A stretch of 64,000 nucleotides of DNA from Folioceros fuciformis. Lineage: Eukaryota. Made by a program: the position numbers and the translations under genes. A model generated the notes under the pieces. The model saw only the letters and a program-made list of their open reading frames with translations. It made no database searches and had not been told where the DNA came from. The stretch is taken from positions 201,108-265,107 of the forward strand of contig JBNGIO010006294.1 in the NCBI GenBank assembly GCA_049999805.1, read 5' to 3'. Below, in pieces: positions 16,280-64,000 of this stretch; the stretch's first letter is position 1, and every line of letters begins with the position of its first letter.

Positions 16280-17160
16280 AGCGGGCGAAGAAACCGCAAT
16301 GGAGTGCAGATACCCAGGCCCTAGCAGCTTCTCACCATCTTTACTTGCACGAACAGGATTTTGGATATACAAGGTGCATCTCTAGGTAGAACGGTCCCGT
16401 AGGTTGCACTTACGGGTCTGGAACTACGGAAAACGTTATAATTTTTTCACGTTCGTAAAAAGGGTGGACACATGCAAGCACGTGGACATGCTAAAGCGGA
16501 CATTCTGTCGGTACTAGAATTTTATTTATTTTTCTTGGGTATCTACCAGCATATATGCTTTTGATTCCCCGTGTTCCATCTAATTTGGCAAACCAATCAA
16601 ACCGGTCCTTGCACCGAAAAGGACACACCGTTTGCACGAGCCAGGCATAGTAGGAGGAAAAACGGCCTAGCCTTACTCTTTTCAGTTCCTCACTTCCACA
16701 GGGACACTACAATCTCGCACGAAAGCGCTTTCATGTCTACTTTATGTGGTAGCGGAGAGCATCTAACTAGCATATGCTCTAGGTTTTAGGGTCGAGGCCA
16801 CGCCCACGTCTAAGATTTGCCTAGCTCTCCATGAATCCTTTGCTCTTGTGTGCATTTGCGAAGCTGTTCCACCTCCACCTCATTGCTGGCCAGCGAAGGA
16901 TGTTGTTTGCACAATCCCGAACGTAGTGAGGGCCACATGTTGGAGAGAAGACGACACCAGTGGGACGCTTGGCCATTTGTGTTGATCTCAGCCTCCATCC
17001 CCCCCCTCCCGCCTCTTTCATTCCATGTAGAACTGAATGTTTGCTACTCGCTATGCACGCAAACTATTATGGCCAGCTTTAGCAACCTAGTATTATGTGG
17101 CACAAGTTTTGTGCAAGGTCTCTAGGGGTCGTGCAAGCCCAAATCCCTCCATTGTAAGCT

Positions 17161-17281
17161 AAAAAGCGGCTACTTGCCAAATAGGTGCCAATTTGTGGTG
17201 TGCTGTGCAATTGTGGGAGCTGAAAAGCAGCTACTTGCCAAACATTTACCAATTTGTGGTATGTTGTGCAATTGTGGGAGC
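17161..17281. repeat. Imperfect ~61-bp tandem duplication
   Basis: Two copies of aaaagcrgctacttgccaaa...ccaatttgtggtrtgytgtgcaattgtgggagc. Confidence 0.75.
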
Positions 17282-18056: not shown

Positions 18057-18583
18057 GTGGAGGGCTACAGATGGTAGAAACTTGCCACTAGCTAATAGCT
18101 CAAATGGATTTCAACTGGTATAACAATTGTGACACAAGTAGGACAACATAAACTAAAAGTAGGTTGAATTTCCATATACCTGCAATTGGTTGACCTCCTT
18201 GACCAACTTATCCAACTATAGTTAATCACTCACTGGCTATTGTGCTAAGAATATGGATATGGTTGCACCTAGCACCTTAGCAATATATACCTTAGTTGGT
18301 GTGCACTCAAGTAAGTGTGTATCACACTAACTCAAGTCTGGCAAACCCGATAAGTTTAATGTTTGTGAAGATGATAACCATTCAGTGATGTGCGTTCTAT
18401 GAGAATGACTCAAGTGCTTGAAATGTTTGACATGCACTATTTTGGGCATCGAATCTTGCAACATTAAAAAGACTTTTAACTAGTACTCACACATAAACTC
18501 ATATGCAACATGAGCACATGTGCAAGAGCCTCACACACTACCAGCACCATTAACTCTAAACACATGTCTCTTCTTCCCAACAC

Positions 18584-20509
18584 ATGGGTTGGTACCCTGG
18601 CTGGATTGATGACATGGGGGCATATGTCACTGCTCCTTCATGCAAAAAGTCTACAAAAAAACTTCAGGCTATGTCTCGTGTGGCATCGGAGTGGGCCTCC
18701 ACGCACCTTGTGGAGTTCGATTCTAACAAGTTTGAACTTATTCATTTTTCCCTGAAGCGTAAGGAATCAACAAAGGAATGTACTCTTTCGTTACCTGATG
18801 GTTCCCTTATCACTCCCTCCGAGTGTATTAGGTTTTTGGGCTTCTACTTGGATTCCAAGTTAACTTGGAACACGCATGTTCATCAGGTTTCGGCTTCCGC
18901 AATGCGTACTTTGTCAGCTATAATCTCTCTTGGGAATTTAGTTTGGGGCCTCAATGCCAAGCTTCTTCGACACTTATACATCAATGTTGTCCTGCCCAAG
19001 CTCGATTACGGCTGCAATGTCTGGTTCAACGGAGGTCGTACACACATTCAACACCTCGAACGGGTCCAACGTCTAGCCTGTAGGGCCATTACTGGTGCGT
19101 TTCGAACTACCTCCACTGATGCCCTGGAATTTGAAGCTTTTCTTCTGCCCACGGAGTTGCGCCTCCAACGCCATTCTTTCCGTTTTCTCCTCCGCAACGT
19201 CTCCTACCCTCCCTCTCACCCCATCCATCAAGTCTTTCTTCCTACGACTAACTACAAAAAACGCTCCCACAATGCTATCCGCAGTCGCCTCACACTCCTT
19301 TCCCCTAGTACTCTGTACTCCGCTTTAGAATTGCCTACCTCCACTGTCATTGAGACTATTTTTTCTCGACTCGTGCCTCCCTGGGCCTCTCCTCTTTCTT
19401 TACCCACAACCATCGTAATTTTACAATCTCCCAATTCTGCTATTGCCTCACATTCCCTACATCTTTTGACTCCTAATACCTTTGCCATTTACATTGATGG
19501 TTCTCTTCTGAATGGTCATGCCGGGGGCGCGGCTATTTTCTACTTCAAAGGGGATATTGTCCATCAATTATCTTTTGGTTTAGAACACTACGGGGTTTAT
19601 GAGGCAGAACTCCTCTTTGTGGTCACAGCAATTTCATGCTTGCCCACCCTCTTTGCTTCCATCCCCAGGATTTCGTCAGTTGCAATTTTCCTTGATAATC
19701 AAGCAGCTATAATGTCTTTAACGGACACTTTGGCTCGCCCAGCCCAAGCCATATCTCTCCAGGCTAGAACATCTCTCCATGCCTTCTCGGTAGCTGATCC
19801 AGAGGTTTCCCTTAATCTCCACTGGATTTCGGGCCATCATAATATTGTTGGTAATGAGCATGCAGATGTAACCGCCAAGGCTGCCACTCTTCTTCCCATT
19901 TCCCGCGAAGACCGGATTCTATCAGTGTCCAGAGCTCGCCAACAAATTCATGCTGCAAGTCTACAGGAGTGGCGTTTACGGTGGGTTTCCTCAACTAAGG
20001 CTTCTGCGCTTAAGAGGGTAGTGCTTGGTGGCCCTTCGGCCTCGGTGCTACAACATCTTGGTCTCCATGACCGTAAGCTCTCATCATTTCTCACCTAGCT
20101 TCGAATTGGGCATATGGCTATTGGGGCTTACTATAAGAGATTCAACATTGAAGAGGATCCATTTTGTCGGAAATGCAGGTCTTCATAAGAAACTCGGCAC
20201 CACATCCTTGGCCAGTGTATGGCCACTCGCAACACTTGGATCCAGATGTTTCAAGGCTCTTACTACAATATCCGCCAACTTCTTAGTGTTCCCAAACTCA
20301 GGGAAAAACTTCTCTCTTACTTCAAGGCGATTGACGATTACTTAACTTAGGCTTATTGACATAGCTATCTAGTTTTGCTATTTTGTTTGCTCTAATCCTC
20401 TTTCTTTTGCGCTTTTCTAAAGTGTCCATTCAATCATGTTTTTGATTCACGTTCCGCCATCATAGCCTCACGGCTGCATACGCCTAATGATAAATAAAAA
20501 AATAAAAAA
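18584..20509 (+). mobile_element. 5'-truncated non-LTR retrotransposon (C-terminal RT, RNase H, Cys/His motif, 3'UTR, A-rich tail), degenerate
   Basis: RT motifs WIDD, KFELIHF, IRFLGFYLDSKLTWNTH and ACRAITGAFRT. RNase H motifs IYIDGS, YEAEL, IFLDNQAAI and LHWISGH..GNEHAD. After an in-frame TAG at 20096 the frame continues LRIGH..CRKC..ETRHHILGQC. Tail taaataaaaaaataaaaaa at ~20491-20509. Confidence 0.92.
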
Positions 20510-21599
20510 TGGGATGTACTAGTATTTGTGACTAACAATTTCACATGGATAGGAAATTGTCTGCTTTTATAGAAGCATGTTGTACTTATTGTTCTAATTT
20601 GGTGTTTCGAGTGATAGCATTATCCTTGCAATATGCTTGAAATAGTTGGTTTACTTTTGCAGTCAAATATGGTAATAACCAATCCTGCCTTCGACTTTTC
20701 AATCGCTTCTTAGTCAAAGAAGCTATGGCTTTTAAGTGACTATGATATGGCTCTATACTTGAATTAAAATTCTATGAAATGTATGACACAATTCACATTG
20801 CTACCAACAACATAACAATAATAAGATCCTATTCCTTTCGAAAATAATTGATAAATAATGGTGCAATTGTGTGAAACTCCATATACAAATTGGTAAAGGC
20901 AGCTCATCTTTTTTGTATGCTGCAATTAGTATATATAATATATGGAAAAGCCTTATACAGTCGTTTCCTCACTTCTAGATCACGTACCTTTTGCAAAAGA
21001 TGTCTATACCAGCATATGCTAACATGCCACAAACATCCATACACTAGCATACTCTCTCCAAAAGCTATTTGAATAGCGTTTATTTGCGCTTGGTAATCAT
21101 CAATAAGAAAGAAAGGAAGGAGTCCAAGTAAGGTGCTTCAATAACATGTGGATCCAAAGTGCATGTAACAACTTTTAAATTACTATCTCACTAAGATGGA
21201 AAAAAGTTGTTGATGTAAAACCAAAAGAACACTAAAGTTAGAAAACTTCTATATTGTGACCTTAAACTATAATGTCACGTGCCACTTACTCACTTTTTGT
21301 TTGTTGGACCAAGAGGTTGCATTTATAGATAATGAATTATTTATCCCTCATTTGACAAGCATCTCCTCTTGAAAAGATGACTGCATTCTTAAGGAAAAGA
21401 TAGAATGTTCTTCCTAGAAGTGAAATACAACGCCATGGTGCATAGCAATCCACAAACGGAAACTATCCTCCTTACAAGCGGCCAAGGCGTAGAAGTGAGC
21501 ACTTGCTTGTCTTGCATTATTGTCAACATCCTTTCCAATGAGACATTCTTCTCGTGAAGGCATGAGTGTAGCTGACATGTGCTCATCAATCAAATAGCA

Positions 21600-22173
21600 A
21601 TAATCTCTTCATAGACTTTGAGAATTTGGGCTCTTGGAACCTTACAAAACACCCTATAATTCACCCAATTCCAAATATCCTTTGATAGGTGAGGAGACAA
21701 GTCAGTTGGGTTCTTACATGGTCAATTATGACAAAATTGGCCATTACTATCCATAAGGGAGCCTACAAAAATCTTAATTTCAACAACGCAAGGTCACATT
21801 AGAAGCTGCCGTACCTCAAAATTATATTGACACCCCCTTTTGATGTTGTCCCCATGTTTCACCTTTGATTGTTTGTTACCCACGTCGGTCTTTGGATTGT
21901 TGACAAGCTCTATAAACACTTCTTCCCCTTTTAGACACTTGTCTTCACAACCATATGCACAAAAATGCTTCTGTAAGCTCATGTGTGCAGGGCATGACAA
22001 AATGGAGATGCTTTGTTCATAGGGGTGTGAGGAGTGTAACGTTGAATGTGCAGATTTGTCAAGAAGCCTTCCAAGGTTTCCTCCCCTTTCACAAAATCAA
22101 CAACTCTCTCAAAAGGAATGAAAGCAACTTGCACATTCCTACAATGACTACCATATATATGTTGCTCAAGCAT
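21600..22173 (-). pseudogene. Decayed N-terminal part of a SWIM/MULE transposase-related gene (At4g13970/At1g60560-like)
   Basis: Frameshifted fragments VAFIPFERVVDFVKGEE, FCAYGCED, IKRGCQYNFEVRQL and NGQFCHN..LSPHLSKD are colinear with the recalled family N-terminus. Stops and frameshifts present. Confidence 0.6.
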
Positions 22174-23617
22174 CCATAGATGTGAGTTCTTGTTGTGTGA
22201 AGGGGCCTACCTAAGGTTGTGAGAGTGCCTAGATGGTAGGCCAGGGAAATGTATAAGAGGATGACACATTGGTATTGCACAACAAAGGAATATGCTATAC
22301 AAGTGAACGGCAGACTAGGGTCAAAAATGAGCACAAGGAAATGTAGAGGGGGAGAATTTATGGATTGCATGCATACCTCACATTCTCTACCATTCCTAGG
22401 ATGTGGAATTTCATGCAAAATTCCACTGCAAAATTCCACTTCAAACAGATCACTAGATATTTAGATACTTTTCAGAGGTAAGTTTTCCATCTTCGGCACA
22501 CACCTGCCCTTTGAGTAGCTGTCTAATGAGTCTCCATCCCATGCATTCTTTCTTGCACTCTATTACAATGTCTGTGCTTGTCTATACCTGCTCCAGTGCA
22601 TGTATTCCTTAGCATCCATTTAGCTGTTCCTTAGCATCCATTTAGGTGGTGTATTCTAGATCCTCGCCAGGGGGTGTTCAACATCTCAGGATATGTTCAA
22701 TTAACTTAGGACAAGGTTCATTATGTATGACATTAACTAAGGGCACATTTCCGTACGCGTCGATACCAACCGGTGACCGGTCAGGAGCGAAACTAAACCA
22801 GGGACTCCTGGACCCCAGAAGGAAGGAGATTAATAAATTGAACATTTAATATACTAATAAAAAACCTAGGGGATTGTGACCCCCCCTGAATTCAGGCAAC
22901 TAAGTACTCGGGCTACATCCCATCAGGCCTGTACCAGGCAGCTCCTGAGAATGTTCATGACTGTGTTACCTCTGCACGTTGGACCTCCAACTTGGTCAAC
23001 ACCTGTTTCAAAGTATGTGCAACTTGGGACCCCCAGCTGTGTGGCCACAAGGTAGTACCAACGGTCCTGTACGTGCTGAAGACACGAGCAGCACTCACGA
23101 CTCGATTTTGTTTGGCCTCGCACTCCGCTTGGGCCCTGAGCCGGCTTTGCGGTGGATCGTGTTGTTCCCACCAACCTCTTCCTGACGACACTACCCCATC
23201 CGAGATCCTGGACATCATCCTTTCTGGCTCAAAACGGAGGGCGCGGTATGGAGGGACATTGGTGGACCAGGGCTGTGGAAGTCTCTGAAGGTGGAGGAGT
23301 TGATGCTCAGCTGCCCTCCTTGGGTGGGAGATCTGATCAACCTTGAAGAAGTTATTCCGCTTCTTTTTGGTTCTGACCTGGCTTGAGTGCAGACTTCCTT
23401 TCATCGTCTTCAGCTGCTCCGAAACCTCATGGAGATCCTGCCTGGAGTTCTGGTGGATTGGGAGCTTGTGTGGATGGCGTATTCTGCCAAGATGCCCGAA
23501 TTGGAAGTGTAGCTGCCTATCCACAGACAGAAGCATCTGGACACGACAGTGACAGGCATGAGAAGGAGTAATTAGGCAGCAGTGCGTTAACAATTGGCGA
23601 GCTTGCAGGCTGTGGGC

Positions 23618-25402
23618 ATGGCCGAATGGAGGAAGCGGAGGTTAAGAATCAAGACATTTCTAGGACTTCTGAAGGACCAATTGGAAAAAGGATTGGCATT
23701 CGCAACCAGTACCTTTGCAGGCATGCATATAGCAGTGCTCATGGCAACCAGCCATGAAGAGTGCCTCCCTGAGGAAAAGCATGTTCAAACTATCCTCTCA
23801 GCAGGGACGGGGTCCAGGGTACGAGTGGCCTTCAGCGTAAGGGCCCTGGTGAAGAGGTTGCAGAAGACAAGGAAATGGGCTGTGGCATTAAAGTGTCTCG
23901 TGGTCATCCATCGCACACTCCATGAAGGGGGGTTCCTGTTTCAAGATCATCTCGCTGCCCTTGCTAACGGTGGCCGTGACTTCCTCAACCTGTCCAATTT
24001 TAAGGACGACTCTGGACCTTTGGCTTGGGCACTTTCCTCCTGGGTGAGAAGGTATGCTCATTTTCTAGACGAGCGTCTGATCTGCTGCAAAGCAGTGGGC
24101 TCGTTTCTGGACATCAAAAGCCGCATGGGTCGACGGGTAGGGGAAAGGGTGCCTTACTTAGCAACAGAGGAGCTGTTGGAGGATATCTCCGCTCTACAGT
24201 CTCTCTTGAAGCAAGCTTTTGAATGTGAGGTAGATAGAATTGCGGCAGAAAATGAACTCATTTTGGAGGCTCTGAGGCTAGTGGTTCGAGATAGCTACCT
24301 TGTACAGGAGGAGATCAGCTATCGACTAAAAGAAATGATGGCAAGATTAGATGTCTTACGGCTTGCTGAGGCCCTGCAGCTCCTCCACGTCTGCAGGAAA
24401 GCTTCTGAGCAAACAGAGAGGCTGGTCGAATTCTGTGAACTATGCGAGGCTACTGGCATATCAGAGGCTTGCAGGATCCCTGAGAGGATTGAATTTTCAG
24501 ACCTGGATCTCCGGAAGGTGAATCAGGCCATCAAAGCAGCGTCGATACAGCCTTCAATGATATCCTTGCTCCGAGCTGAAACTCTAGGTAGACACACAGG
24601 TGCGACAGGGCGCTTTTCATTCAGCAGCGCTCCGGAGGCAGGTGTTCAGGGCTTGAGAAGATCTCGCTCGAATTCAGAAAGAAGGTCGGGCAGCGTTCGA
24701 GCTCAGTCATCCCCTGCTTCACAAATCAATGGGGTGTCAGTGACGGAAGTTGGAGACAAGCATGCAATTCAAGGCATGTTGGCTGAATTAGCATCTCCAA
24801 GAGGAGACTTGCAGCCTGGAGCAGTGGGATCGCTCCAGGGTCTACTACCCCCGATGCCTCCCCTGAATAGCTATCAAGGTTATGCTGTCCAACCGTCTCT
24901 TGGGGTCCCCTGTCGATCTTCGCAGCGTAATGGAGTGGGTGTGAATGATGTCAGAAACTCCCATATTCCTGTATTGCATGGTTCGACATCACTTTTGGCA
25001 GAAAAATCATCTGAAGGAACAGAATGGGAAAGCACACTCTTGGAATCTTTGAAGACCTTAGAGTGGACAACAGGTCCTTCACGTCTCTTAAGCTGGAGTG
25101 AAGGGGGAATTAGCTTTGCAGGTACATCAAATCTAAGCTCCACCACAGCGACCCACATCCAGCAAGATTCTAAGGGTGCCACCGAGAGCTTGGACATTCA
25201 GTCATCTATACCAGCTCCTCAATCTCAGGCAGGTCTAACTCGACGACATCATCGTTTGAGTCTGGAACATGATCTGGTTCAGGTGCAGCGTCCGCAACAG
25301 CCAGTAGCAGGACCTCTCCTCGCACCTCAACCACTGTATCCTGACTGTTTCGGATGCGTTCTTGTAAACGGCAATGGGTTGGCTGCTCCTTTGCCTAGAT
25401 GA
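23618..25402 (+). CDS. ANTH-domain clathrin assembly protein (PICALM-like), intronless
   Basis: LGLLKDQ, IAVLMATSHEECLPEEKHV, RLQKTRKWAVALKCLVVIHRTL, FLNLSNFKDDS..SSWVRRYAHFLDERL. C-terminal low-complexity region with WESTL. Confidence 0.92.
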   Translation: MAEWRKRRLRIKTFLGLLKDQLEKGLAFATSTFAGMHIAVLMATSHEECLPEEKHVQTILSAGTGSRVRVAFSVRALVKRLQKTRKWAVALKCLVVIHRTLHEGGFLFQDHLAALANGGRDFLNLSNFKDDSGPLAWALSSWVRRYAHFLDERLICCKAVGSFLDIKSRMGRRVGERVPYLATEELLEDISALQSLLKQAFECEVDRIAAENELILEALRLVVRDSYLVQEEISYRLKEMMARLDVLRLAEALQLLHVCRKASEQTERLVEFCELCEATGISEACRIPERIEFSDLDLRKVNQAIKAASIQPSMISLLRAETLGRHTGATGRFSFSSAPEAGVQGLRRSRSNSERRSGSVRAQSSPASQINGVSVTEVGDKHAIQGMLAELASPRGDLQPGAVGSLQGLLPPMPPLNSYQGYAVQPSLGVPCRSSQRNGVGVNDVRNSHIPVLHGSTSLLAEKSSEGTEWESTLLESLKTLEWTTGPSRLLSWSEGGISFAGTSNLSSTTATHIQQDSKGATESLDIQSSIPAPQSQAGLTRRHHRLSLEHDLVQVQRPQQPVAGPLLAPQPLYPDCFGCVLVNGNGLAAPLPR

Positions 25403-26645: not shown

Positions 26646-29223
26646 TGGCCGAGCCAAGAAACGGAGCAGGCGGTTAAGAGCCGTTAAGCCTTCAGCTGCA
26701 ACGGACAGACACGCCACCGGAGCCTCGCCTCCTCCGCCGGCAGTTATCTCCCCCTGCGCCTCGTCTTCCCTCCTCCCCTCGTCTTTTCCCTGCTCCACCT
26801 TCTCCGCTTCTTCGCCCTTGTACATATCCTCCTCTCTCCCCGCCACTGCTTCCCTGCATCGATCGCCTTCTCTGTACATTCTGTTTTTTGAGGGGCCTGT
26901 CGGAGCCAGTTGCTCCGGAAGCGCGTTTGTTTTTGCGTTTCTTTTCTTGTTGTTGGAGCTTTTTGCACATCCTCGATAGATAGATAGATAGACAGACAGA
27001 TACATACATTCTGTGTGGCTCCCGAGGACTTTGCTCCTCACACTTTTTGCTTGTTTCTTCACACTCGTTTGCTTTGCTTGCACGTGCACATACATTTGAC
27101 GACGCGTTTCAGGATTTCTTGTAGGATTGCTGTAACATAACGTTGTTACCTTTCTTTTGTGTAAACATCTTCTATGCACGATCGTCCTGAGGCCTGTCTT
27201 GTTTGTTTGCTTCCGAGGGACGATCCGGATTGTGAATAAGGATTTTGAGATTGAGAAGCTTTGTTTAGGTTCTGAGCAAGCGATCTGTGTCTGTTTTCTG
27301 GACACTTAATCTTGACCTTGCGCAGAAATCAGTTTTGCAAAGAAAAACGTAGGAGAAATGCGGAGTGTAAAATTTGTCAATAGAGATTCACGCTGTAACA
27401 TATATTAGGCGGATTTTGTTTTTTGTTTTTTGTTTTTTTCCTTTTTTTTGGTTTGGCTAGATCGACGTTCCTCCAGTTTTTCAAGACGTACTATGGCATT
27501 CGCAGGAAGCATCTTTGTTGCTTTGATCCTTCCTGACTCGGCTAAGCGATCACCACCATACCATCGGTTTAGGAATTTCGCACACCATTACGGGAATTTA
27601 GCAGCGTAGGAGAAGTTACAATAGAACCTGCTAGTCTGTATGGCTGCAGATGGACATAGGATAGCTGAATGTAGGACTGATTTGTAATGTCAACACGTCT
27701 TGGAAAGAGTTGGTGCAAATGGAGATCGGAACGGGCATGAAACCTGGACCGGGGCTCGGTTCCAGTCTGTTGTCTCGGATTCTTGATTGATGCTTTAGTG
27801 TAGCGTTGTTTGTTGCTTAATTTCTTTAGGCTTTCAAAGGTCTGACGACTCTGCATGTTCATTCAGGTCAGCCAATTGGTTGTAGGATAGATCTCCATTT
27901 GCTGCTGTAGTCTGTAGAGCTTTCTTTCGAGTAAGCTACGTCAGTGTAGACTAGAGTAGAGAGGAGAGTGGAGTAGAGTAGGAATTAGTGTGAAAATTAA
28001 GAAGGCATGAATTCTCGGCAACAGCTGCAAAGCTCATCTCCATCGACAGGATGGATTCCGGCATTGAAGTTCATGTGGCGATACTTGAGGGCCACGCCTT
28101 GGCTGTGTGACGGGGTTGTTCTAGGCACCACCGTTGCTGCCATCTCTTCCACATCCGCGCTTGCCTTTTCTTCAGCTTTGATGAGGTATCGACATCGATG
28201 GAGCAAGTGACTTGTTAGTAATCCACCTGTTGCTGTGGCCTAGAGGAAATCGCAGAGAATGGCATGAAATCTTGTTGCAGTGTCGGATTGTCCGTTGAAC
28301 GAGAGAGAGCATTACTAGTCCCGTCATGCATGCAGAGTGCACTACATTAGAGTCGGTGGAAGAGCTGTTTGAAAAGCTCCCCCGCCTCGTGTGATGTGAA
28401 CTTACGTAACTGGTGTTGTTGAAGGTTTCCGAAATTGAGCGGTGGCACGTCGATCTCAAGCGCGACTGCTTTGCGGCAGGCGGTGTTTGACACAGCCTGC
28501 CATGAATGCAACGCGTTGCGACTCTTCTCGTTAACCCCAAGGCCCTCGACCAGCAACTCAGCAGTGTTAGGTGGCCACGTCTCCACTCTGCTGGGATTCT
28601 CCACCGACACTCTCATCACCGAGACCTTCATGTCATTCCTCATTTCCTTCATCATAGTCACGTTCTCCGTTTTTCTGGTGAGGGAAATGAGATGAGGAGC
28701 TTAATCAGCCGGACTAGCGTACTCCAATGGCCAAGAGAGTCTGCGAACACAAGCTGATGATACTTCCAGGAACAGCACTTTCTGCATTCCGGACGGAACA
28801 AGATTGTAATCAGAGCATAAAATCGTGAGTGGAATGCTGTCCCTTTGCCCTCAAACCAGTCAAAATGTTTTGTCTGTGCTCGTGATCAGATTCCTTAATG
28901 GAAGTCAAGTCCTAATCATGCCAAGCTACTTTTACGTTGAAATGGAATTGACGCCTTGCATGCAGGCAGGCAGCCAAGATGGAGAAGGACGGCGTGACAC
29001 AATCGACAGAAGCAGAAGCGTGCAACATATGTACACCGCATGTGCCCTTGTGCTCGCTCCATTGGGTGAGGTGACTGGAAACACTGTAGCTGGCAGTGCA
29101 GCACAGTGTTGAAGGACTGAGTTGTGTGCGGCTTGTGTAAGGGTGTGGATGACTGACACCTTGGCAGTTGCACCTGCAGGACGGGAAATAAGATTTACAT
29201 ATAGGTTTTGGTGGAAGGAGTGA

Positions 29224-29305
29224 AGGCAAGGCAGGGCAAGGCAAGCCAAGGCAAGGCAAAGCAAGGCAAGGCAGGGCAAGGCAGGGCAAGGCAAGCCAAG
29301 GCAAA
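29224..29305. repeat. (GGCAA)n-type pentanucleotide microsatellite
   Basis: aaggcaaggcagggcaaggcaagccaaggc... Similar pentamer tracts at ~32396 (GACTC), ~32488 (GCACA), ~35063 (AGAAG) and ~35580 (GCTTG). Confidence 0.9.
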
Positions 29306-31316: not shown

Positions 31317-31940
31317 AGACTAAGGTGACCGTAAGCATGAACTTTGAAGACTAAGGTGACCGTAAGCATGAACTTTGAACTTTGAGAGCTGTACCATAGA
31401 GTAAAAGTTGGTAGAGAGTTTGGGACCTATCACCAATCCTTTTGGGACCTATCCTTTTGAAAGATCACCAATCCTTTTGAAAGATCACCAATCCTTTTGA
31501 AAGATCACCACCATGGCTTAGGTCCTATCACCACCATGGCTTAGGTCCTTATCACCACCATGGCTTAGGTCCTGGGCTCTCTCTTAGGTGCTGGCCATGG
31601 CTTTTTGGCTGGCCATGGCTTTTTCGTTGGCCATGGCTTTTTGGTTTTTGGCTGGCCATGGCTTTTTGGCTCTCTCTTAGGTCCGAGGGCTCTCTCTTAG
31701 GTCCGAGGGCTCTCTCTTAGGTCCGAGGGCTCTTTCTTAGGTCCGAGGGCTCTCTCTTAGGTCCGAGGGCTCTCTCTTAGGTCCTGGCCATGGCTTTTTG
31801 GCTCTCTCTTAGGTCCTGGCCATNNNNNNNNNNTTAGGTCCTGGCCATGGCTTTTTGGCTCTCTCTTAGGTCCTGGCCATAGGTCCTGGCCATGGCTTTT
31901 TGGCTCTCCCTTAGGTCCCAGGGCTCTCTCTTAGGTCCTG
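31317..31940. repeat. Compound minisatellite of 30-, 21- and 20-bp units, containing an N gap
   Basis: agactaaggtgaccgtaagcatgaactttg x2, atccttttgaaagatcacca x3, atcaccaccatggcttaggtcct x3, ggctctctcttaggtccgag x6, and repeated ggccatggcttttt. Confidence 0.92.
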
Positions 31941-34900
31941 GCCCGGGAGTCCAACTAGGGAGAGTAGTGGGGTCATGGCCATAGCCTTGTAACATCTGAA
32001 CAAGGGCCTAATAGAGTACTCGTAATTTTTTGGGCCTAATAGAGTACTGGTAATTTTTTGAGAAAGAGTGTGTGATGGCTGGGTGCCTGGGTGGGTGGGT
32101 GGGCAGAGCGAGCGAGAGCTGGAGCTGGAGCTGGAGCTGTAAAAGAGTCGAGCTGGCCAGCGAAAAAGCATGTGAGAGAGCGATGTGAGTAGACTACATA
32201 ATGTACGTGAGTTGGCAGGGGGCGGTTGCGGGTTGTCGACGGGTCGCTTTAGACACGCACAGACACAAACAACCGGACAGAGTGGGGTGGGCTTCGGTGG
32301 GTAAGGCGAGGTCCGGTGGGGACCCTCCTTCTGCTCGGCGTGCTGTGAAATGGACGTCGTCCAGTGGCATTTATGGATGCCACTGTTGGGGATAAGACTC
32401 GACTCGACTCGACTCGACTCGATTGGAGTAGAGTCGGACTCCACTCGCAAACGCTGGCACCTCGGCATGCATCAATGTAGACTAGTAGCACAGCACAGCA
32501 CAGCACAGCGGACAGCCGAGCAAAGGAGAGTAGAGCAGAGAGAGGTACGCTGGGACATTGTCCCATCTGCACACAGGGCTGCGATGTGCTGTGCCGTGCT
32601 GGGCTTGTGCTGTGTGCTCTTCGTCTACCTCCACTTCCACTGCTGCTGCTGGCTCGGCCAGTCGACAGTCGGGGTGAGTCGTGGCCAGCCCCCGGGGCTC
32701 TGTTGCACCTGGCTTCCGTGTGTCCTCTTCAGTGTGCGTTTGCTTTGCTCTGGTTTGCTGTGCCAGGAGTAAGAGACTGGACAATCCGGACAACGCAAAG
32801 CAAGGCAACGCAACGTAACGCAACGGGGGAGGGGGGCTGGGGCCCAGATCTTCCAGGGTGTGGGGAGAGAGAGGAAATTAACGGGGGTAGCTCAGTGGAC
32901 CGGACTGTCTGCTCACAGACATGGACATGGACATGGACAAAGACCTCTCGTCTCGTCTCCTCTCTCGCTTGTCTGTCAAACCACAACCCTCCCATATGCA
33001 CGTCATATCCTTTCCTTCCCTTTGGCTCTTCGCCTTTTTTTTTTCCCCCTTTGGACACAGGCTTCTTTTTCCGCCAAGCCAACGCCACGCAACGCCGGTC
33101 TGGTCTGGTGTCTCGATGATCTGGTAACAGGATATCTTCATCTCTATCCAGCCAGGGGCCAGGGGCCGGGGGCCAGGACTCCAGGAGCCAGGCTCCCAGA
33201 CCTCCCCTCCGCCTCCCGCAACCTCTGGCGCTACTCCATGATTGCTGGGCTCCAGGCTCCACCATTGGCCCACAAATATTACCAAGGCATCCAGGCAACC
33301 ACGTGAAGCCGTGTGTCAGTCACGTATGGCCTGGTCCCACACATGGGATTCCTCCCTCCGCTTTACCGCAAGGGAAGGCTGGCCTCTGCGGGAAGACAGA
33401 CAAGCCAGACGACGCGGACAGGACGGGAATTTCCCTCTCTTCCCCAACCAAACCCTTTCTTTCTTTGCAAAGCCCAGCCCCAGTCCCCAGTCGCCAGCGC
33501 CATTCTCTCTCTCTCCGCTTCCTCTTCCTTGTCCCTCTTTTCCTTGGTATGCACGAGCTCCCAGAAGGCGTCCAGGAAGAGAAGAGAAGGGAAGGGAAGG
33601 CAAGGCAAGGATAGGGAGTAGAGTCTGCCCGCTCCCCATATGTACTGTACTATACTGTACTTGTACCTCACACAGACCTTTCTCTCCTCCTTCCGCCAAA
33701 CCAGGAGCAGGAGGCAGAGGCAGGGGCAGGAGCCGGAGCCGGAGCCGGACCCTCCGCAGTAAAATCGGGCGCAGGCTCCCAGGTGCTTTGTCTAGCAGAG
33801 GCTCCCCTCAGGGGAGCCTCTGCTAGCCTCTGCCTCCCCTCCTCTTTTCCCTACCCAGTTGTCGTGTACTTGGCGGCCCCTAGCTTTCGAGGGTTCTCGT
33901 CTCCCTCCCTTCACTGACCACCCCTCGCACGAGCAGGGGGCAGGAGGCAGGGGCAGTGCAGGGCAGGGCCAACCAACCCCTGGGTTTGTTTCTGCAACCC
34001 CAGACCTTGTCCCCGTCCCGTCTCCGTCGCGGTCCCGAAAAGGGAGAGAGACGGGGACACCTCATCTATGCCCACTGTTGAGCTTACTACGCCAATACTG
34101 TGACCGTGGGCGCAGCAGATAAACAATCTCGGGATCTCGCCTGCCATTCGTCCCGCGACTCCCGCACCGTGCGTTTCGGAAGATTCGAGCCCGGGTCGGC
34201 ACAGACGCAGTCCCAAAACTCTACCATGCGGCTGCCGCAATCTTCATCCCAAAACTGTATCCAAATACGCAATATACCCGGCGTTAAGCCCAACTGTGTG
34301 GATCGACTCTCCTAGCATCAAATCTGCGCAAGCATCTTCCCTTCCCCTTTGCCTTTGCCGTTGCGGCCGCAAACAAACCCGGGTGGCACGTACTGGACAC
34401 AGACCCTCTAATCCCGGACTCATCACCTTCCATTCCCTACCCTTCTTCTTTTATTCATTCTTAACTTACCAAAGTGCTGGCGCTGCCGCCTTCCTGGTCT
34501 GGTGCGCTAACTTGCCGTCGGGGCTTCACGCCCTCTAGAGGCCTTCTATGCGGGTAACCGGTCACCGGTTCAGAGGGGACGTAGGATTCCCCTCACCTCA
34601 TCGAGGTTAAACATTTAGCCATGGTCGGACGGGCGGACGGACGGACGGGCTGCTAATCCGTGTTTGGTGCCTCCCATACTTGAAGCAACAAGGAAAGGGA
34701 AGCGTGTGTGTGTGGCGACGCTAGAGCACCGGCCCCCCCCAGCGCGCTGCCCTCCTCCTCCCATTTCTCGCTTGCCGCTCTCGTCCTTGCAGCTTACCGC
34801 ACTCGGCACACCAGCCCGGCTCCCACAAATTCTGCGCTTCTGCATACATACCTAGTCTCGCTTCTCACTCCCCTGTATTAAAGCCTTTCCTGCTGTGCTC

Positions 34901-54076: not shown

Positions 54077-56694
54077 ATGACGAGAGACTTTGTGGTCATG
54101 CATCCCGTGCTGTGGATGGAGGATCGGATGAAGGATCTGGCAGGCGGTTTGCTGGACGTGCAGAGACGAAGGGACCACTTCGAGAGTTTCCGAGCGCTTG
54201 CCCTAAGGAAGCATCGGACCGTAGAGCGGACGTGGGAGTTTTGGAGCCGAATGGTGGATATTTATGCTGGTTACAAGGTGAGGGACGTCCTCCTTCACGA
54301 AGATACGTTTTCAGCACTATCACGTGCTGCTGCAGCCTCATGCTTTGTTGCCGGACCTGACGATCGTTTCGCAGTTGACGCAAGTTCGGTCGGCATTCGT
54401 GACGGATAAGGCTGAATTGGACCGGATATGGGACCGACAGCATGAGAAGGGTGCCGATCAGCTCTATTCCATGTGTGTGGAGATGAAGGGCTTTTTCCTC
54501 AAGGTCGGCCTGCTCTGGGGAAGTGGCTTGTACTGCGGTGTACTTTTGTAAGGGGTCTTGCTGACTCGTATGCTGTTGAATGGACGATGACAGACAGCTC
54601 AAATTTTAGCTAAGCCTGACTTGGCACCGATGCAATGGGTCAAAAAACTTGTCGTCCTTTGCGACCAAGCACCAGAGACTCCCTTTGAAGTCGTGCAAGC
54701 AGCTTTGGAGAGTCAATTTGGAATGCCACTGGGCGTTGTGTTTGACAGGTTTGACAGAAAGCCTATCGGATCTGCATCTGTGGCTCAGGTTTGCTGCCTC
54801 CTGGCACGACACGACTAGGTGTTTTCAGGAGCTGTTGCAATGGGGTGCTGCTAAGTCTTTGTCTTCGGGCTCTCAAATGTTGTCCAGCTCACGAGGTTGA
54901 ACTCCTGCAGGTTCACAGAGCACGTCTGAAGGGTGCCTTAGGAGACGTTGCTGTGAAGGTACGTGGGAATACAACACCGGTGTGTTGGCAGGGGTGTGTA
55001 AACGAGGAAGAGGTGAGCATCTGTTTTGCGGACTTTGCAGGTACAGCATCCAGGGGCTGAGGAGCTCATGATGACAGACATTAGGAATCAGAAAGCGTTT
55101 GCAGGATTTCTCCAACGATTCGATGTCAAGTTTGATCTTGTCACAGTTGTACAAGAAATAGAAGATCAGGTATACTGGTCTTCATAGAGCCTACGCAGGC
55201 CTTAAGGTTGTTATCCATGATTCTGTTCTTCGCGATTGAAGACTATTCAAGGGTTCCAAACATTTTGCAGGAAGAATAATGTATCCTCATATGCTGAACT
55301 TGTTTCAGGTAGCGCATGAGTTTGATTTCAGGAAGGAAGCACGTTCAATGGATAGAATTGCTCAAGCTCTGTCGGTCAACGGAAAGTCACCGGTTGCTGT
55401 GCCTCGTTCTGTTCCAGGGATGGTTTCCAGGTGAACAAGAGCGGGTTTGGGCCCTTCTAAACTGGCGTGTTGTTTTAGTTTAGTTGGTCTGCTTGCTGCT
55501 GAACGAGTCTGAGTGACTGTGACCGCGTGATTGATGACTGTCTTATTGTCATGCAGGCGAGTGTTGGTCATGGACTTTTTGGAGGGAACTCCAATCATAA
55601 AGTTAGGAGATGAAATGGCTAAGCGAGGAATCAACCCCAACGGGAGGATTGCAACCATGGCCAAGAAGTAAGTGATCGGCTTACAGCAAGCAGTTTAGAC
55701 AAGTGTGTGGGGGTTGATCAGTGCAGCGGCTGTTCGACGAGTCGTGTACTCATCCGGCTTTTTGTTGCAGGAATATGATAAAAGATTTAACGACGGCGTA
55801 TGGTCAGATGATCTTAAGAGACGGGTTTTTCCAGGCAGATCCGCATCCAGGAAATATTCTTGTCAATGGCCAGGGAAAGGTATGTGGTCGTCACAGACCC
55901 TCTGCTTGTAGCTGCCAGTCCAGATGCTTGCAAGCTGATAAGCAGAATTGGTGTGAGGGTCATTTGCTCCTTCTAGGAATTGAGAAGCTGATGAAATTTT
56001 TGTTGAAAGGTTGCACTGCTGTGTCACAGAAGCTGACAAATTGTTGGTGAAAGGTTGCATTGCTGGACTACGGACAGACGAAGGAGTTAACGCGACGGGA
56101 GCGACTTGGATTTGCTAAGGTCGTTTTGGGGCTGGCAACCTCCAATGTCACTCAACTGGGTACATCGTTCAAGTATGCCTGTCTGCTTTGACTGTGTTCA
56201 GACCACGTACTTCGCTATGGTATGTGCTACTAATGGGTGAGCGTTGTGGCTGGCAGGGAGCTCGGAATAAAAACCGACAAGTCTGCAAGCGAAGACCCGC
56301 AGTCGTTCAAGACCTTGGCTACGCTCATATTCGACACCCAACTGCCTCCAGGAATGACGGTAGCAAGCCCTTTCGGCGACGACACGATATTGAAGGCGAT
56401 CTCTGTGGATGTGAGCACCCACCAAACCTCTTTCTACGGTTGTGACGCAATTTGGATTCACCGCTTTGTCCTGCTGTGCAGAACTTTCCGAAGGACATGT
56501 TCTTCGTATTAAGGACTGTGCACTTGCTGAGGGGATTGAGTATGGCCATGGGCGTTCCGTACTCGTCGTCCCAGATGTGGAAATCTCTGGCCGAAGAAGT
56601 ATTGACCTCTGCAGGCGAATTGCCAAATCCTTCTCCCTCCTCCCAGTCTCTAGGTAAAGGCCCAGTCTTTTCAGCAATCTGCAGTCACAGTTGA
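54077..56694 (+). CDS. ABC1/UbiB atypical kinase, ABC1K10-like (At5g50330/At4g24810 type), multi-exon
   Basis: FWSRMVDIYAGYK, GFFLK, LCDQAPETPF, PIGSASVAQ|VHRA, VAVK|VQHPG, EFDFRKEA, GFFQADPHPGNIL, LLDYGQ, FPKDMFFVLRTVHLLRGL. Start uncertain; a possible upstream exon ends at ~53971. Confidence 0.92.
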
Positions 56695-58974
56695 ACTGTT
56701 GTATCAACAGCAGTTTAATTTTCTGCGGCTGTTGCAGATCATCAGTTGAGGTCTGCGAAGTCAAAGGAGGGAACTCCTAGGAAATTTATGCGGGACAAGA
56801 GGAGAACATACCGCAGAGAGTCTGAATCATCCTAGGCAGGCGTATTCTGTACCTTCGCAAGTTGGTGGGTGGACATGCCCCACGGTCTCTGGCCATCTCT
56901 CTTTCTATGTATCTGTAGTCGGTGACGTCATTGGAACAAAATGCCTCCTCCCGAGATTCTTTCATCTTGGAATAATTTATGATTCCATTTATGGAAGCGC
57001 TCCCGGGTCTAATTCCCATTGCCTTCGGATGCACTGAACGTGTCAAGGTACATAGTCCGCGATGGACGTCAGTTGTGAACATCTTCAGCAAGTGAGCTAT
57101 GGACAAATCCGTGGAAGAAGATGTCCCCGTCCAAGGGAGCACGACATTGGCTGCCGCAGAGAACACGATATTGAAAGAGGTGCTTGACAAGCAGGAGTCT
57201 CTCGTAGAAGGGCCCGCAAAGGTTAGCTTGCCTGAGGGTGAAGCTACAGCAGCCTTCCAAGAGGACGTGCGGCGACAGGAATCTGCCTTGGAGCAGTATC
57301 GAAAAATTCAGGAGCAAAGCTTTCCAGACCTACCAATCATAACTGGCCAGCAACTGCTCAAGCTGGTCGCCACTGTGAGAACGTCCAAACACTTGAGTTT
57401 GCGATAGCTAGACGTGTTGCTTGCAAGACAAGCCCTTGATCACTTCCTTTCGTTCGCAGAACTCCGTTGGACTCGAGAAGGGTGCGGTATTGGTGGATTG
57501 CCGATCGGATGCTGAACGCAAGGTTCATGAAGCGTGACACATCGCACATGTTGCAGACTCTTCCGCCACCAGGGCTGAGCACTTGGATTGAACGCAGGTT
57601 TCCATCATCCCGGGCGCAGTGGGGAAAGCAGAGATAGAAGGAAAGTTCTATCAGTTTGCAGATAAGGAGGTCATCGGCTACTGGTACGCCTCACACAAGC
57701 TCCTTTTACTTTGAACCTGTCGCAGGCTTTTCCTCACCAGATCCTCGCTGTCTGCAACTCAGTGCGATTGGAAGGCGATCCGGCAATTTCCTCAACAACC
57801 TGTTGAAGAGGCATCCCCAGCTGAAAGTTCTGAACCTGGCAGGAAGTCTGGTGGACTGGGTGCACCTGGGAGGTCCCCTCGTGGATGGTGTAACTGGGGC
57901 CCCAACAACCCGGCTTGACCTCGGTGGCAACAGTTGGCTCCCCTACTTGCCTACTACCAGAAAAGTCCACTTAGTGACCGAAGCAACGTGACGGTGCATG
58001 TTACATACTTCAGATGTTCACAATTCACTCGAGAAGAAAGTACTGTACCCATGGACGTTGATCACAGCAGCGGCAAGCATCTTAGATAGGGACATCGTTC
58101 ATGATCAAACGCGTGGCCAGACATTCACACACACCAGCCGAAGCATTGTCTCACATAAAGTCATAGAAAAGGAACTATCACACGAATGCAATTTGAGAAC
58201 TAGTGTCATTGTGTGGACAAGACGTAGCTCAACTGTGGCATTTTGGCACTTGGAGAAAAACTGCAAGCCACTGCGACTTCTGGCCACGAGATTATTGCGA
58301 AGCTCCAGCTGCAGTCACGAACAAACGACCAGTCCCACAACCATTCTGTCCACAACACTTGCATCCATCTATCCCGGGGGAGCTGCATGCTCCCTGGAAG
58401 CACGTCAATTGTCCAAAACAGGTCCATATCTTACAGCTGCAAGTCCAATCACAACAGATAACACTCTCAGGTACACGGCAAGCAGACGTTACTTCCATGC
58501 ATGTCTTCAAAAAACTGAAAAGGGGTAGGTAGCCCTGCGAGAAACCTGCACCTTGGAAGGTCTACACGAATCGACTCGTTTACGGACAGCACAGCCTGCA
58601 TGGATGAGGTTGAGATTCTTAGCCAGGAATGCCAGACAGGGCAGGGAAGCAAGAGTACATTTTCATCGGAAATACAGCTGCAAGTTCAGAACTTGCACAA
58701 ATTGCTGATTGCTATATCTGCCTTTTATAGTCCTTGCTGGAACTCCCTCCGTCGGATGTTGCACGTGAATTGCTGTCCAAAAGGATCAAATAAATCAACA
58801 TTTCATACAAGAAAACACCTATCAATCCGTTTTCAGAAGCAAGGATATAAATGGATGTGGCTGTTCTTCCTTGGTGAAAGCCTGGGACGTATGACGGGTT
58901 CCCTCCAACGAGACGCCCAACTTGTTCTCTAGACAGCCTAAGCAGAATTCGTCACAACATGACTGTTTCGCATG

Positions 58975-59516
58975 GCGAGCTGTGAGCTCGCTTGCAAAAA
59001 AAATGTCGTATAACCAAAAAAACAATATATGGGAAGCATGTGTCACACAACTATGAGCCGGCTTGCAACCAATGAGAGGCTGAAGGTCTTACAGCGGAAA
59101 ACTCGGTACATGGCAGTCATACCTTACCCATCCGTGAGGTCGCTGGCAAAAGATAAGGCTGACAGTCTAGCGAGAAAAACCCGCTACATGACAGGCATAT
59201 GTCACCATCTGTGAGCTCGCTGGCAAAATATTAGGATGAATGTCTTACAGCAAAAAACCGCTACATGGCAAGCATATCTCACCCATCCGTGAGGTCGCTG
59301 GCAAAAAATAAGGCTGAATGGCTACAACAAAACCAGGTACATGGCCAGCATATCTCACGCATCCGTGAAGTCGTTACAAAAATTACAACAGAATGGCTAA
59401 AATAAAACCCGCTACGTGGCAGGCATATCTCACCAATCTGTCAGGTCGCTGACAACACATAAGGCTCAATGTCCTACAACAGAAATCTGCTACATGGCAA
59501 GCATTTCTCACCCATC
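58975..59516. repeat. ~75-80-bp degenerate tandem repeat, about 7 units
   Basis: Consensus ccgctacatggcaagcatatctcacccatccgtgaggtcgctggcaaaaaataaggctgaatg..acaacaaaa. Confidence 0.92.
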
Positions 59517-59669
59517 TTTGATTCTTTTCAGAAAACTCTCAGCCATCCTTCGAATGACTTTATTCAATTTGTAGCCAACAAATACTCCAATCGTGAAACT
59601 TGCAACTGCAACCTTGGAGCAGGTTACGGCTGACACGGGAGTATTCCGGTTGATGTTGAGCATATTCAT
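59508..59669 (-). CDS. 53-aa single-pass membrane microprotein of a conserved land-plant type
   Basis: MNMLNINRNTPVSAVTCSKVAVASFTIGVFVGYKLNKVIRRMAESFLKRIKDG has a TM helix and basic amphipathic tail, resembling recalled plant microproteins (GVFVGFTLKRRVRRWASKLLKRLKDD). A CAG acceptor just before the ATG suggests a 5'UTR intron. Confidence 0.65.
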   Translation of the reverse strand: MNMLNINRNTPVSAVTCSKVAVASFTIGVFVGYKLNKVIRRMAESFLKRIKDG

Positions 59670-61236: not shown

Positions 61237-62823
<1,587 letters not shown>

Positions 62824-63432
62824 TGGTCGAGAACCAAGCTTGGACGTATATCTGGCAAGCTTCCCCTAATATGGCGAGTGACAATTTTGACGGATCATGA
62901 AGGCTATCCTGACTCCTGTGGGCTAGTGAAAGTTGGGTCCATATTTTAGAGGTTGCCTGCCATATGCTGGCAAAGCCAATTCTGTTGGAACACCGACATA
63001 ATTGAGTTCGGTCCCACTCAAACACTTCATGATGCGATGCGATGGCACTGGCGACTAATGCAAGACCAGTGGATACGACCATCTCTTGTACTAGGCGGAA
63101 TCAAAGTGGTTTAACAGTACAAATTTTCAATGGATAACAAAGGAGGAGATAGTGAGGATCTGCGCACAATGCTCTGCCTTCCCGCCAGAACCAGCTCTTT
63201 TGAAGCCCATTCTGTAGACGCAGGTCGCAGGTGTATCTTGCCGCATCATCGACATGGCCTGCAACTGTTCCCATGAATCCACTAAGCATACCTGGATATG
63301 GCAACCCACACAAGAAACTAGTTGTAACTTTTGCAAGAGATGGAGGCGTAACACATCTGGAAAACAAGGACACCAGTGGAGTGGGTATCAACGCAGACAA
63401 GTGACGTACCCACTGGCAAACACATAAATTAG

Positions 63433-64000
63433 TCAATTGCGATGATTAGCACCCTCCACGGCCATCAAACCCTCAGAAGCAACCAGTTCCGGAAGATTCA
63501 AACCCTCGCCGATAGCTTCATTGAACACGAAATCAATCACAAACGTATCACCGAGGCTAAGCTCTTGCTCAAAGTCTAGATCAGCCGCTGCCTCTGGTGC
63601 CGCCTCCATGAAAATTGCAAACTTGTCATCCTCGTCCCCAGAACATGTTGGATAAGGGCGGGCTGACACTTCTGGTGTAGGAGGGGAAACCCGAAATCTT
63701 TTCAAACTCTGGCCGATATAATCATCGAGGCTGAGCTCTGTCTTGAATTGGTTCAGTAGTTTGTCCCGTCGGGAATTAGGGTCGCTTCCAGCAATGGTTG
63801 CTGCGGGGTCATTGCTCTCCCAAAAGTGACGACACACCCAGCCCAACAAGTCAACCTCAACGTCTAGATCAGCCGCTTCCTCTGGTGCCACCTCCATGAA
63901 AATTACAAACTCGTCATCCTCGTCCCCATAACATGTTGGATAAGGGCGGCGGGCTGACACTTCTGGTGTAAGAGGGGAAATCGGATATTTTTTCGAACTC
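63433..64000 (-). CDS. 3' part of an unknown acidic protein with an internal repeat; ORF open at the window edge
   Basis: Frame is open from the edge to the stop at 63433. Segments 63575-63710 and 63863-64000 are duplicated, encoding ISP.TPEVSARPYPTC.GDEDD.F.IFME.APE.AADLD. Confidence 0.5.
   Translation of the reverse strand, partial: SSKKYPISPLTPEVSARRPYPTCYGDEDDEFVIFMEVAPEEAADLDVEVDLLGWVCRHFWESNDPAATIAGSDPNSRRDKLLNQFKTELSLDDYIGQSLKRFRVSPPTPEVSARPYPTCSGDEDDKFAIFMEAAPEAAADLDFEQELSLGDTFVIDFVFNEAIGEGLNLPELVASEGLMAVEGANHRN

Follow-up and report, generated by a model that had tools for sequence, protein, structure and literature searches.

Within the 64-kb stretch of DNA analysed here (the window), the end of a conserved plant microprotein gene runs into a degenerate tandem array of ~78-nt units, and this array is most probably an old, decaying minisatellite located in the 3' UTR or 3' flank of the gene. 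Most likely, the repeat begins at the genuine stop codon and is ordinary non-coding DNA. A sequence-only reading of the same region had taken the array for a cassette of mini-introns and skippable 15-nt microexons able to vary the C-terminal tail of the protein. The motifs and coordinates on which that proposal was built were all reproduced, whereas the splice-like pattern itself is not beyond chance. The window is nuclear land-plant DNA with a G+C content of ~50%, and the features that we located in it are listed in Table 1.

Table 1. Positions of the features described in the text. A1 is the alignment of the repeat units, TRF is Tandem Repeats Finder, and a slash marks a candidate splice site.
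Feature	Position	Strand	Description	Evidence
Pentatricopeptide protein, PLS-type with E motif	13652-16381	-	intronless, 910 aa
ANTH-domain protein	23591-25399	+
Open frame downstream of the array	58822-58989	-	55 codons and stop, in phase with the terminal GG/ of the gene
Degenerate tandem array	58980-59521	-	~78-nt unit, seven copies and 11-nt stub	TRF, A1, nhmmer, pairwise identity matrix
Repeat unit u0	59521-59449	-		A1, nhmmer
Repeat unit u1	59448-59374	-		A1, nhmmer
Repeat unit u2	59373-59298	-		A1, nhmmer
Repeat unit u3	59297-59220	-		A1, nhmmer
Repeat unit u4	59219-59143	-		A1, nhmmer
Repeat unit u5	59142-59062	-		A1, nhmmer
Repeat unit u6	59061-58991	-	badly decayed	A1, nhmmer (match 59057-58992)
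Partial unit CGAGCTCACAG	58990-58980	-	11 nt, closes the array
Overlap of u0 with the gene end	59508-59521	-	last four codons and stop (ATC AAA GAT GGG TGA)	nhmmer, A1
Donor-to-acceptor stretch 1	59449-59511	-	63 nt, GTGAGA...GTCAG
Donor-to-acceptor stretch 2	59433-59374	-	60 nt, ends TTGTAA (no AG)
Donor-to-acceptor stretch 3	59358-59298	-	61 nt
Donor-to-acceptor stretch 4	59282-59220	-	63 nt
Donor-to-acceptor stretch 5	59205-59143	-	63 nt
Donor-to-acceptor stretch 6	59127-59062	-	66 nt
Donor-to-acceptor stretch 7	59046-58991	-	56 nt
Block 1	59448-59434	-	15 nt
Block 2	59373-59359	-	15 nt
Block 3	59297-59283	-	15 nt
Block 4	59219-59206	-	14 nt
Block 5	59142-59128	-	15 nt
Block 6	59061-59047	-	15 nt
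Microprotein CDS (MNMLNI...KRIKDG)	59508-59669	-	53 aa, single helix, including TGA stop at 59510-59508	ORF list, homology
Porphobilinogen deaminase (HEMC-type) gene	61237-62826	+	five exons, four introns, 401-codon frame
Porphobilinogen deaminase intron 1	61539-61638	+	100 nt
Porphobilinogen deaminase intron 2	62045-62135	+	91 nt
Porphobilinogen deaminase intron 3	62340-62436	+	97 nt
Porphobilinogen deaminase intron 4	62615-62710	+	96 nt

The array and its units

Tandem Repeats Finder reported a repeat with a period of 78, 5.7 copies, 74% matches, and a score of 420 at 59077-59516, and it also gave a 153-nt reading of the array. The unit boundaries in alignment A1 were set by hand, and an nhmmer search with a profile built from units u1 to u5 stretched the array to 58991-59521. 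The repeat of intron-like units previously noticed at 58975-59516 is therefore real, as Tandem Repeats Finder, alignment, and nhmmer all confirm. Units u1 to u5 matched the profile with E values of 6e-19 to 7.5e-24, which are not independent because these units built it; the independent matches were those of u0 (E = 3.5e-13) and u6 (E = 0.087). Pairwise identity among the units ranged from 54 to 81%, and a 30-mer from the array core had three matches at three or fewer mismatches compared with none in 100 shuffles.

The array has the properties of a minisatellite: its copies lie head to tail, its unit falls in the range of 10 to 100 bp, the repetition has statistical support, and no conserved protein is encoded, the host family ending before the array. 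Stop codons interrupt each of the six frames that cross the array, and the seven unit lengths (71-81 nt) follow no fixed multiple of three. Coding on the plus strand was rejected because every plus-strand frame is interrupted. An nhmmer search of the rest of the 64-kb window with the unit profile revealed no convincing second site; the best match outside the array had E = 0.05 (17222-17258, inside a different, 61-bp repeat), and a dispersed repeat or transposon fragment was therefore rejected as the identity of the array. The 61-bp repeat itself (17157-17281) consists of two copies with 87% matches, and the likeness of its core (ttggcaagtagc.gcttttt) to that of the array (ttgccatgtagcggttttt), which underlies the nhmmer match, is probably chance. 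Tandem repeats are frequent locally, with 28 Tandem Repeats Finder rows in 64 kb, so an array that abuts a coding end is not surprising here.

The host gene and its stop codon

The open reading frame next to the array has 53 codons (59669-59511). A single-sequence word search with its product found no word-sharing relative of 29 to 93 aa, and phmmer against 1.84 billion representatives returned seven matches, the best with 72% identity over all 53 residues (E = 8e-17). One protein, P0004 (1186 aa, no aligned stretch), was probably matched through its composition and was left out of the family set. A profile made from the microprotein and its phmmer relatives (alignment A2) retrieved 216 land-plant proteins with E values down to 3e-29. 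The source names among the best 120 of these 216 include "Transmembrane protein", Arabidopsis T29M8.11, "like AT1G19240", Selaginella LOC112347779, Calypogeia fissa, and Ginkgo Gb_29641, and the closest named relatives among the same 120 are those of Selaginella (59%), Calypogeia (58%), and Ginkgo (56%).

Judged by this homology, the microprotein belongs to a family of small transmembrane proteins that is spread across the land plants and that one source describes as "like AT1G19240". The similarity is significant and full-length, the motif ...SKIA.ASF..GV.VGY.L....RR.A...L..IKD is shared, and the window protein ends at the family C-terminus. It differs from the family in being shorter at the N-terminus (53 aa compared with about 90-110 aa in angiosperms) and in its last residue, Gly instead of the Asp or Glu of most members. 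Mitoregulin (Pfam PF22002, MTLN) was rejected as an identity because the window protein scored 21 bits (E = 3e-4), below the gathering cut-off of 27 bits; four of six tested relatives scored 14 to 21 bits, and the hydrophobic helix was the sole matched region. The best score in an ESM Atlas search was 0.79, under the lead level. This functionally uncharacterised family has a strikingly fixed C-terminus (...RRWASKLLRRLKDD); judged by titles and the opening lines of abstracts, a full-text literature search for AT1G19240 retrieved no paper about the gene.

It had been suggested that the apparent TGA stop of the microprotein lies within a canonical splice donor, and the family speaks against this. 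Among the best 120 of the 216 relatives, which are 58 to 123 aa long, all 120 have a C-terminus within one residue of Gly53 (protein end relative to profile end of -1 in 12, 0 in 105, and +1 in 3; a second weak domain of P0051 accounts for a 121st row), and all 120 close with ...KD(D/E/G). The longer length class (133-2000 aa) contributed 11 family matches. Eight of them (P0124-P0128 and P0130-P0132) are unannotated open reading frames that run past KDD with W directly next, which fits TGA read as Trp by the ORF caller, so that these extensions look like database artefacts; two of the remaining three are NCBI models that stop at KDD, and one diverges mid-domain. No credible C-terminal extension was thus found among the 120 members of 58 to 123 aa and the 11 longer matches. 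Because the relatives end within one residue of Gly53, the TGA is the ancestral stop codon and no part of a splice donor. Aligned with its family, the ...IKDG-TGA of the window reads as the family's normal end, and the donor-like GG/GTGAGA arises by accident where the Gly codon GGG runs into TGA and GA.

Junctions between the units

The gene ends with ATCAAAGATGG, followed by GTGAGA, and a script confirmed that the array starts within the final codons (AAA GAT GG/GTGAGA), as the sequence-only reading had it. The nhmmer alignment of u0 begins at profile position 6 (59521), and the part of the gene end that overlaps the unit consensus TCACAGATGG is identical to it at nine of 10 positions. On the other side of the array, the flank opens with CGAGCTCACAG and continues with CTCGCC. 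The blocks between the candidate introns read CGA(C/G)CTCAC(A/G)G+ATGG; in them, the first bases of the right flank are joined to the last bases of the left flank, and the join shows a microhomology of five in six bases (TCAaAG at the gene end, TCAcAG in the flank). This chimeric anatomy is the expected signature of a ~78-bp tandem duplication reaching from the gene end to the right flank, and the 15-nt blocks are duplication junctions, each made of CGAGCTCACAG from the right flank and ATGG from the left. The gene-side copy is ancestral, given the family-wide conservation of IKD. Duplication of a unit had been proposed as the origin of the cassette, and the chimeric blocks bear out that part of the proposal; the duplicated segment, however, comprises the gene end and 3' flank and not an exon end, an intron, and an exon start.

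The following history would account for these observations. A founder segment of ~78 bp, beginning with the final coding bases (...ATGG, with the stop as G-TGA), reaching ~65 nt into the 3' flank and ending in ...CGAGCTCACAG, would have been duplicated head to tail. Replication slippage or unequal exchange, with the junction in the microhomology, may have produced the first duplication, and amplification to seven copies would have followed. Each copy would then have inherited the donor-like stop-codon context GGGTGAGA together with the acceptor-like, T-rich ...TTTTGCCAG end, and the supposed microexon would be the junction between two copies. The array would be transcribed as untranslated sequence and would undergo no regulated splicing. 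Signs of drift are present, namely, the loss of one acceptor-like AG, a 1-nt deletion, and a distal unit that is nearly unrecognisable, and the decay looks neutral.

Conservation across the unit

Conservation is clearly higher in the first half of the unit than in the second. Mean pairwise identity among u1 to u5 was 0.81 in the block, 0.85 in the first eight bases of the candidate intron, and 0.77 in the next 22 bases, compared with 0.59 in the middle and 0.65 in the final 15 bases, acceptor included (the column windows are offset by one base). The better-kept half could be a repeated cis element. An untranslated but functional array, in which a multiplied 3'-UTR element alters the choice of the 3' end or the stability of the mRNA, is nevertheless an unlikely explanation. 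Candidates for such an element would be a polyadenylation region containing UGUA and T-rich motifs and, in the conserved core GATGGGTGAGATATGCTTGCCATGTAGCGG, a binding site for either a protein or a small RNA. By eye, most units contain one or two TGTA motifs and then a T-run, a combination that resembles the far-upstream and near-upstream polyadenylation elements of plants, and the first ~45 nt of the unit are those that are better kept. Uneven conservation can, however, also stem from uncertain alignment of the T-rich half and from gene conversion. The array has no conserved secondary structure: predicted folds differ among the seven units (z from -4.4 to +0.56), and z is -1.45 for the array as a whole, with eight of 100 shuffles folding as well or better. 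A structured RNA was rejected on the grounds that no fold is common to the units and that Rfam gave no match anywhere in the 64-kb window. A scan for bacterial-type promoters and terminators is not meaningful for a plant locus.

The sequence-only reading had also stated that GT and AG are kept while other positions diverge. GT is indeed kept in seven of seven units and AG in six of seven, but 25 of 73 alignment columns are invariant, and GT and AG are no better conserved than their neighbours. Both columns were invariant in nine of 72 adjacent pairs across the seven units. Among random pairs of pairs, 186 of 4970 (3.7%) were at least as conserved as GT (7,7) with AG (7,6), a nominal p of 0.037 for dinucleotides that were picked after the fact from a consensus holding five GT and six AG. 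GT and AG thus surpass random column pairs only marginally, their special conservation is not convincing, and GT falls in the best-kept stretch of the unit, GGTGAGATATGC. The supposed exon and the interior of the supposed intron are similarly conserved, and the acceptor region is less so, which is not what would be expected of a working exon-intron unit.

Candidate introns and microexons

Splicing of the array is very unlikely in the form in which at least one of the 56- to 66-nt GT...AG stretches is removed together with the stop codon, and the 15-nt blocks are included or skipped to yield tails such as ...KDGDLTDG-stop or substrates of NMD. The lengths of the candidate introns and the lengths and coordinates of all six blocks agreed exactly with those first reported. 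Splice-like termini with T-rich, pyrimidine-rich interiors toward the 3' end occur in six of seven units (59433-59374, which ends TAA, is the exception), and all but one of the six blocks measure exactly 15 nt, which keeps phase 2-2. Translated in phase 2, the blocks gave GDLTD, CDFTD, ADLTD, and GELTD, in agreement with the (G/C)D(L/F)TD-like peptides predicted for them, and after block 1, 2, 3, 5, or 6, a copied stop comes immediately, so that inclusion would lead to short, defined products. The nominal conservation of GT and AG, in the top 3.7%, is a further point in favour.

For comparison, introns of the window were taken from the chloroplast-type porphobilinogen deaminase gene (9e-73 to Arabidopsis 4HTG). 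Its four introns were derived from 4HTG alignments combined with a frame-consistent GT-AG search, and their removal left an uninterrupted 401-codon frame. Pfam scans of 148, 78, and 85 open reading frames of the window for more introns gave scattered exon matches (PQQ, GT29, LEA_5, and ABC1) with no exact boundaries. The donor-like GG/GTGAGA and the acceptor-like TTTTGCCAG/C of the array look no weaker than confirmed sites such as GAG/GTTGGT and GCTTGTCTAG/G, and the candidates are as T-rich as the confirmed introns or richer (T, 30-46% compared with 31-39%; AT, 52-68% compared with 42-55%). Their length, by contrast, is ~60 to 70% of that of the confirmed introns (91-100 nt), a reference of four introns from one gene; the caveat attached to the original proposal, that the mini-introns would be shorter than others in the window, was well placed. 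Older work by Goodall and Filipowicz reportedly put the lower limit for efficient plant splicing at ~70 nt. A published source (PMC11078188) states that minimum intron lengths exist.

Against the proposed cassette, with its variable C-terminal tail, stand the short candidates, the end of the family, fixed in 120 of 120 relatives (the best 120 of 216) with no real extended form among the 11 longer matches, and the state of the blocks, three of six of which are compromised: block 2 lacks a preceding acceptor, block 4 breaks the frame with its 14 nt, and block 6 has diverged to RLIVV. Moreover, all GT and AG copies come from one founder unit through duplication and thus represent one event, not seven, so that they are not independent evidence. 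It is accordingly highly improbable that the stop-spanning duplication created spliceable mini-introns and 15-nt exons that are used for acidic tails of the DLTD type or for NMD. If this were true, the locus would hold a natural microexon cassette born from a minisatellite, replacing an otherwise invariant C-terminus, and would show duplication creating introns and microexons in a single step.

A further reading, which we consider extremely improbable, is a single 521-nt intron (59511-58991) joining the gene to a second exon (58990-58822) that would add 56 residues (ELTARHAKQSCCDEF...KTD); 55 full codons are open after the last acceptor-like AAG/C, in phase with GG/, but at least 56 codons are open ahead at 20.6% of random window positions, the downstream peptide matches no Pfam family, GC by codon position does not clearly set this frame apart as coding from the two alternative frames, and no family member among the best 120 of 216 and the 11 longer matches has such a C-terminal extension. 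The downstream frame was accordingly judged to be chance and is unsupported as a real exon.

Relation to known systems

The ordinary minisatellite is the closest counterpart of the array. As in minisatellites (VNTRs) of 3' UTRs or 3' flanks, non-coding units of tens of bases are arranged head to tail, here in seven copies; divergence rises toward one end, and the array is one of many within 64 kb. What sets it apart from an ordinary minisatellite is that its first unit extends over the stop and into the last four codons of a conserved gene, and every unit consequently carries a fossil stop-codon context. As it stands, the minisatellite matters little, being one of many arrays in a repeat-rich plant window and leaving the protein unchanged. 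It is a caution for scans that work from sequence alone, because a repeat seeded at a Gly codon and stop (GGG TGA GA) makes every unit donor-like, and the GT...AG pairs and the constant length of the supposed exon are then copies of one accident.

Micro-exon genes, such as those of schistosomes, have symmetric exons a few codons long whose combinatorial inclusion is possible. The array blocks are similar in being 15 nt long, phase-symmetric, and in tandem, but their peptide is not conserved in 120 homologues, one of them has 14 nt, and one has no acceptor. Neither a homologue containing the peptide nor a variable tail was found, as all 120 homologues end alike within one residue. A length divisible by three is kept by five of six blocks and lost in block 4, and this length was inherited from one junction.

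Intron gain by tandem genomic duplication is set out in the AGGT model (Hellsten et al. 2011, PMC3265369), and a potato RdRp gene is a case of it (PMC4974935). In the model and in the array alike, duplication sets a GT start and an AG end in series and provides donor and acceptor pairs in one step, with no need for the signals to evolve gradually. In the AGGT model, however, splicing removes one duplicate and restores the message, whereas use of GG/GT in the array would delete the conserved stop and change the protein: any splice from 59512 would take out both the TGA and the last base of the Gly codon, and the frame and product that preceded the duplication would not be restored. The duplicated segment of the array is also mostly 3' flank and not exon.

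Other features of the window

On the plus strand, exon fragments of an ABC1 atypical kinase (Pfam ABC1 positions 2-46, 60-106, and 170-206) lie at 54591-56047. This gene is convergent in orientation with the microprotein gene, and the array may therefore lie between two facing 3' ends. A 512-aa open frame at 18560-20095 (plus strand), which encodes an RNase H domain (E = 6e-9), adjoins the stretch of lowest GC (20001-22000, 0.378) and may be a retroelement remnant. At 63436-63999 (minus strand), an open frame without a Pfam match runs off the window end and contains a protein-level duplication, ...SP(L/P)TPEVSAR(R)PYPTC.GDEDD.F.IFME.APE.AADLD... occurring twice. Other repeats include at least nine different short tandem repeats with periods of 13 to 31 bp and 91 to 100% matches, packed within ~750 bp at 31317-32060, and an (AAGGC)16 pentanucleotide microsatellite at 29223-29304.
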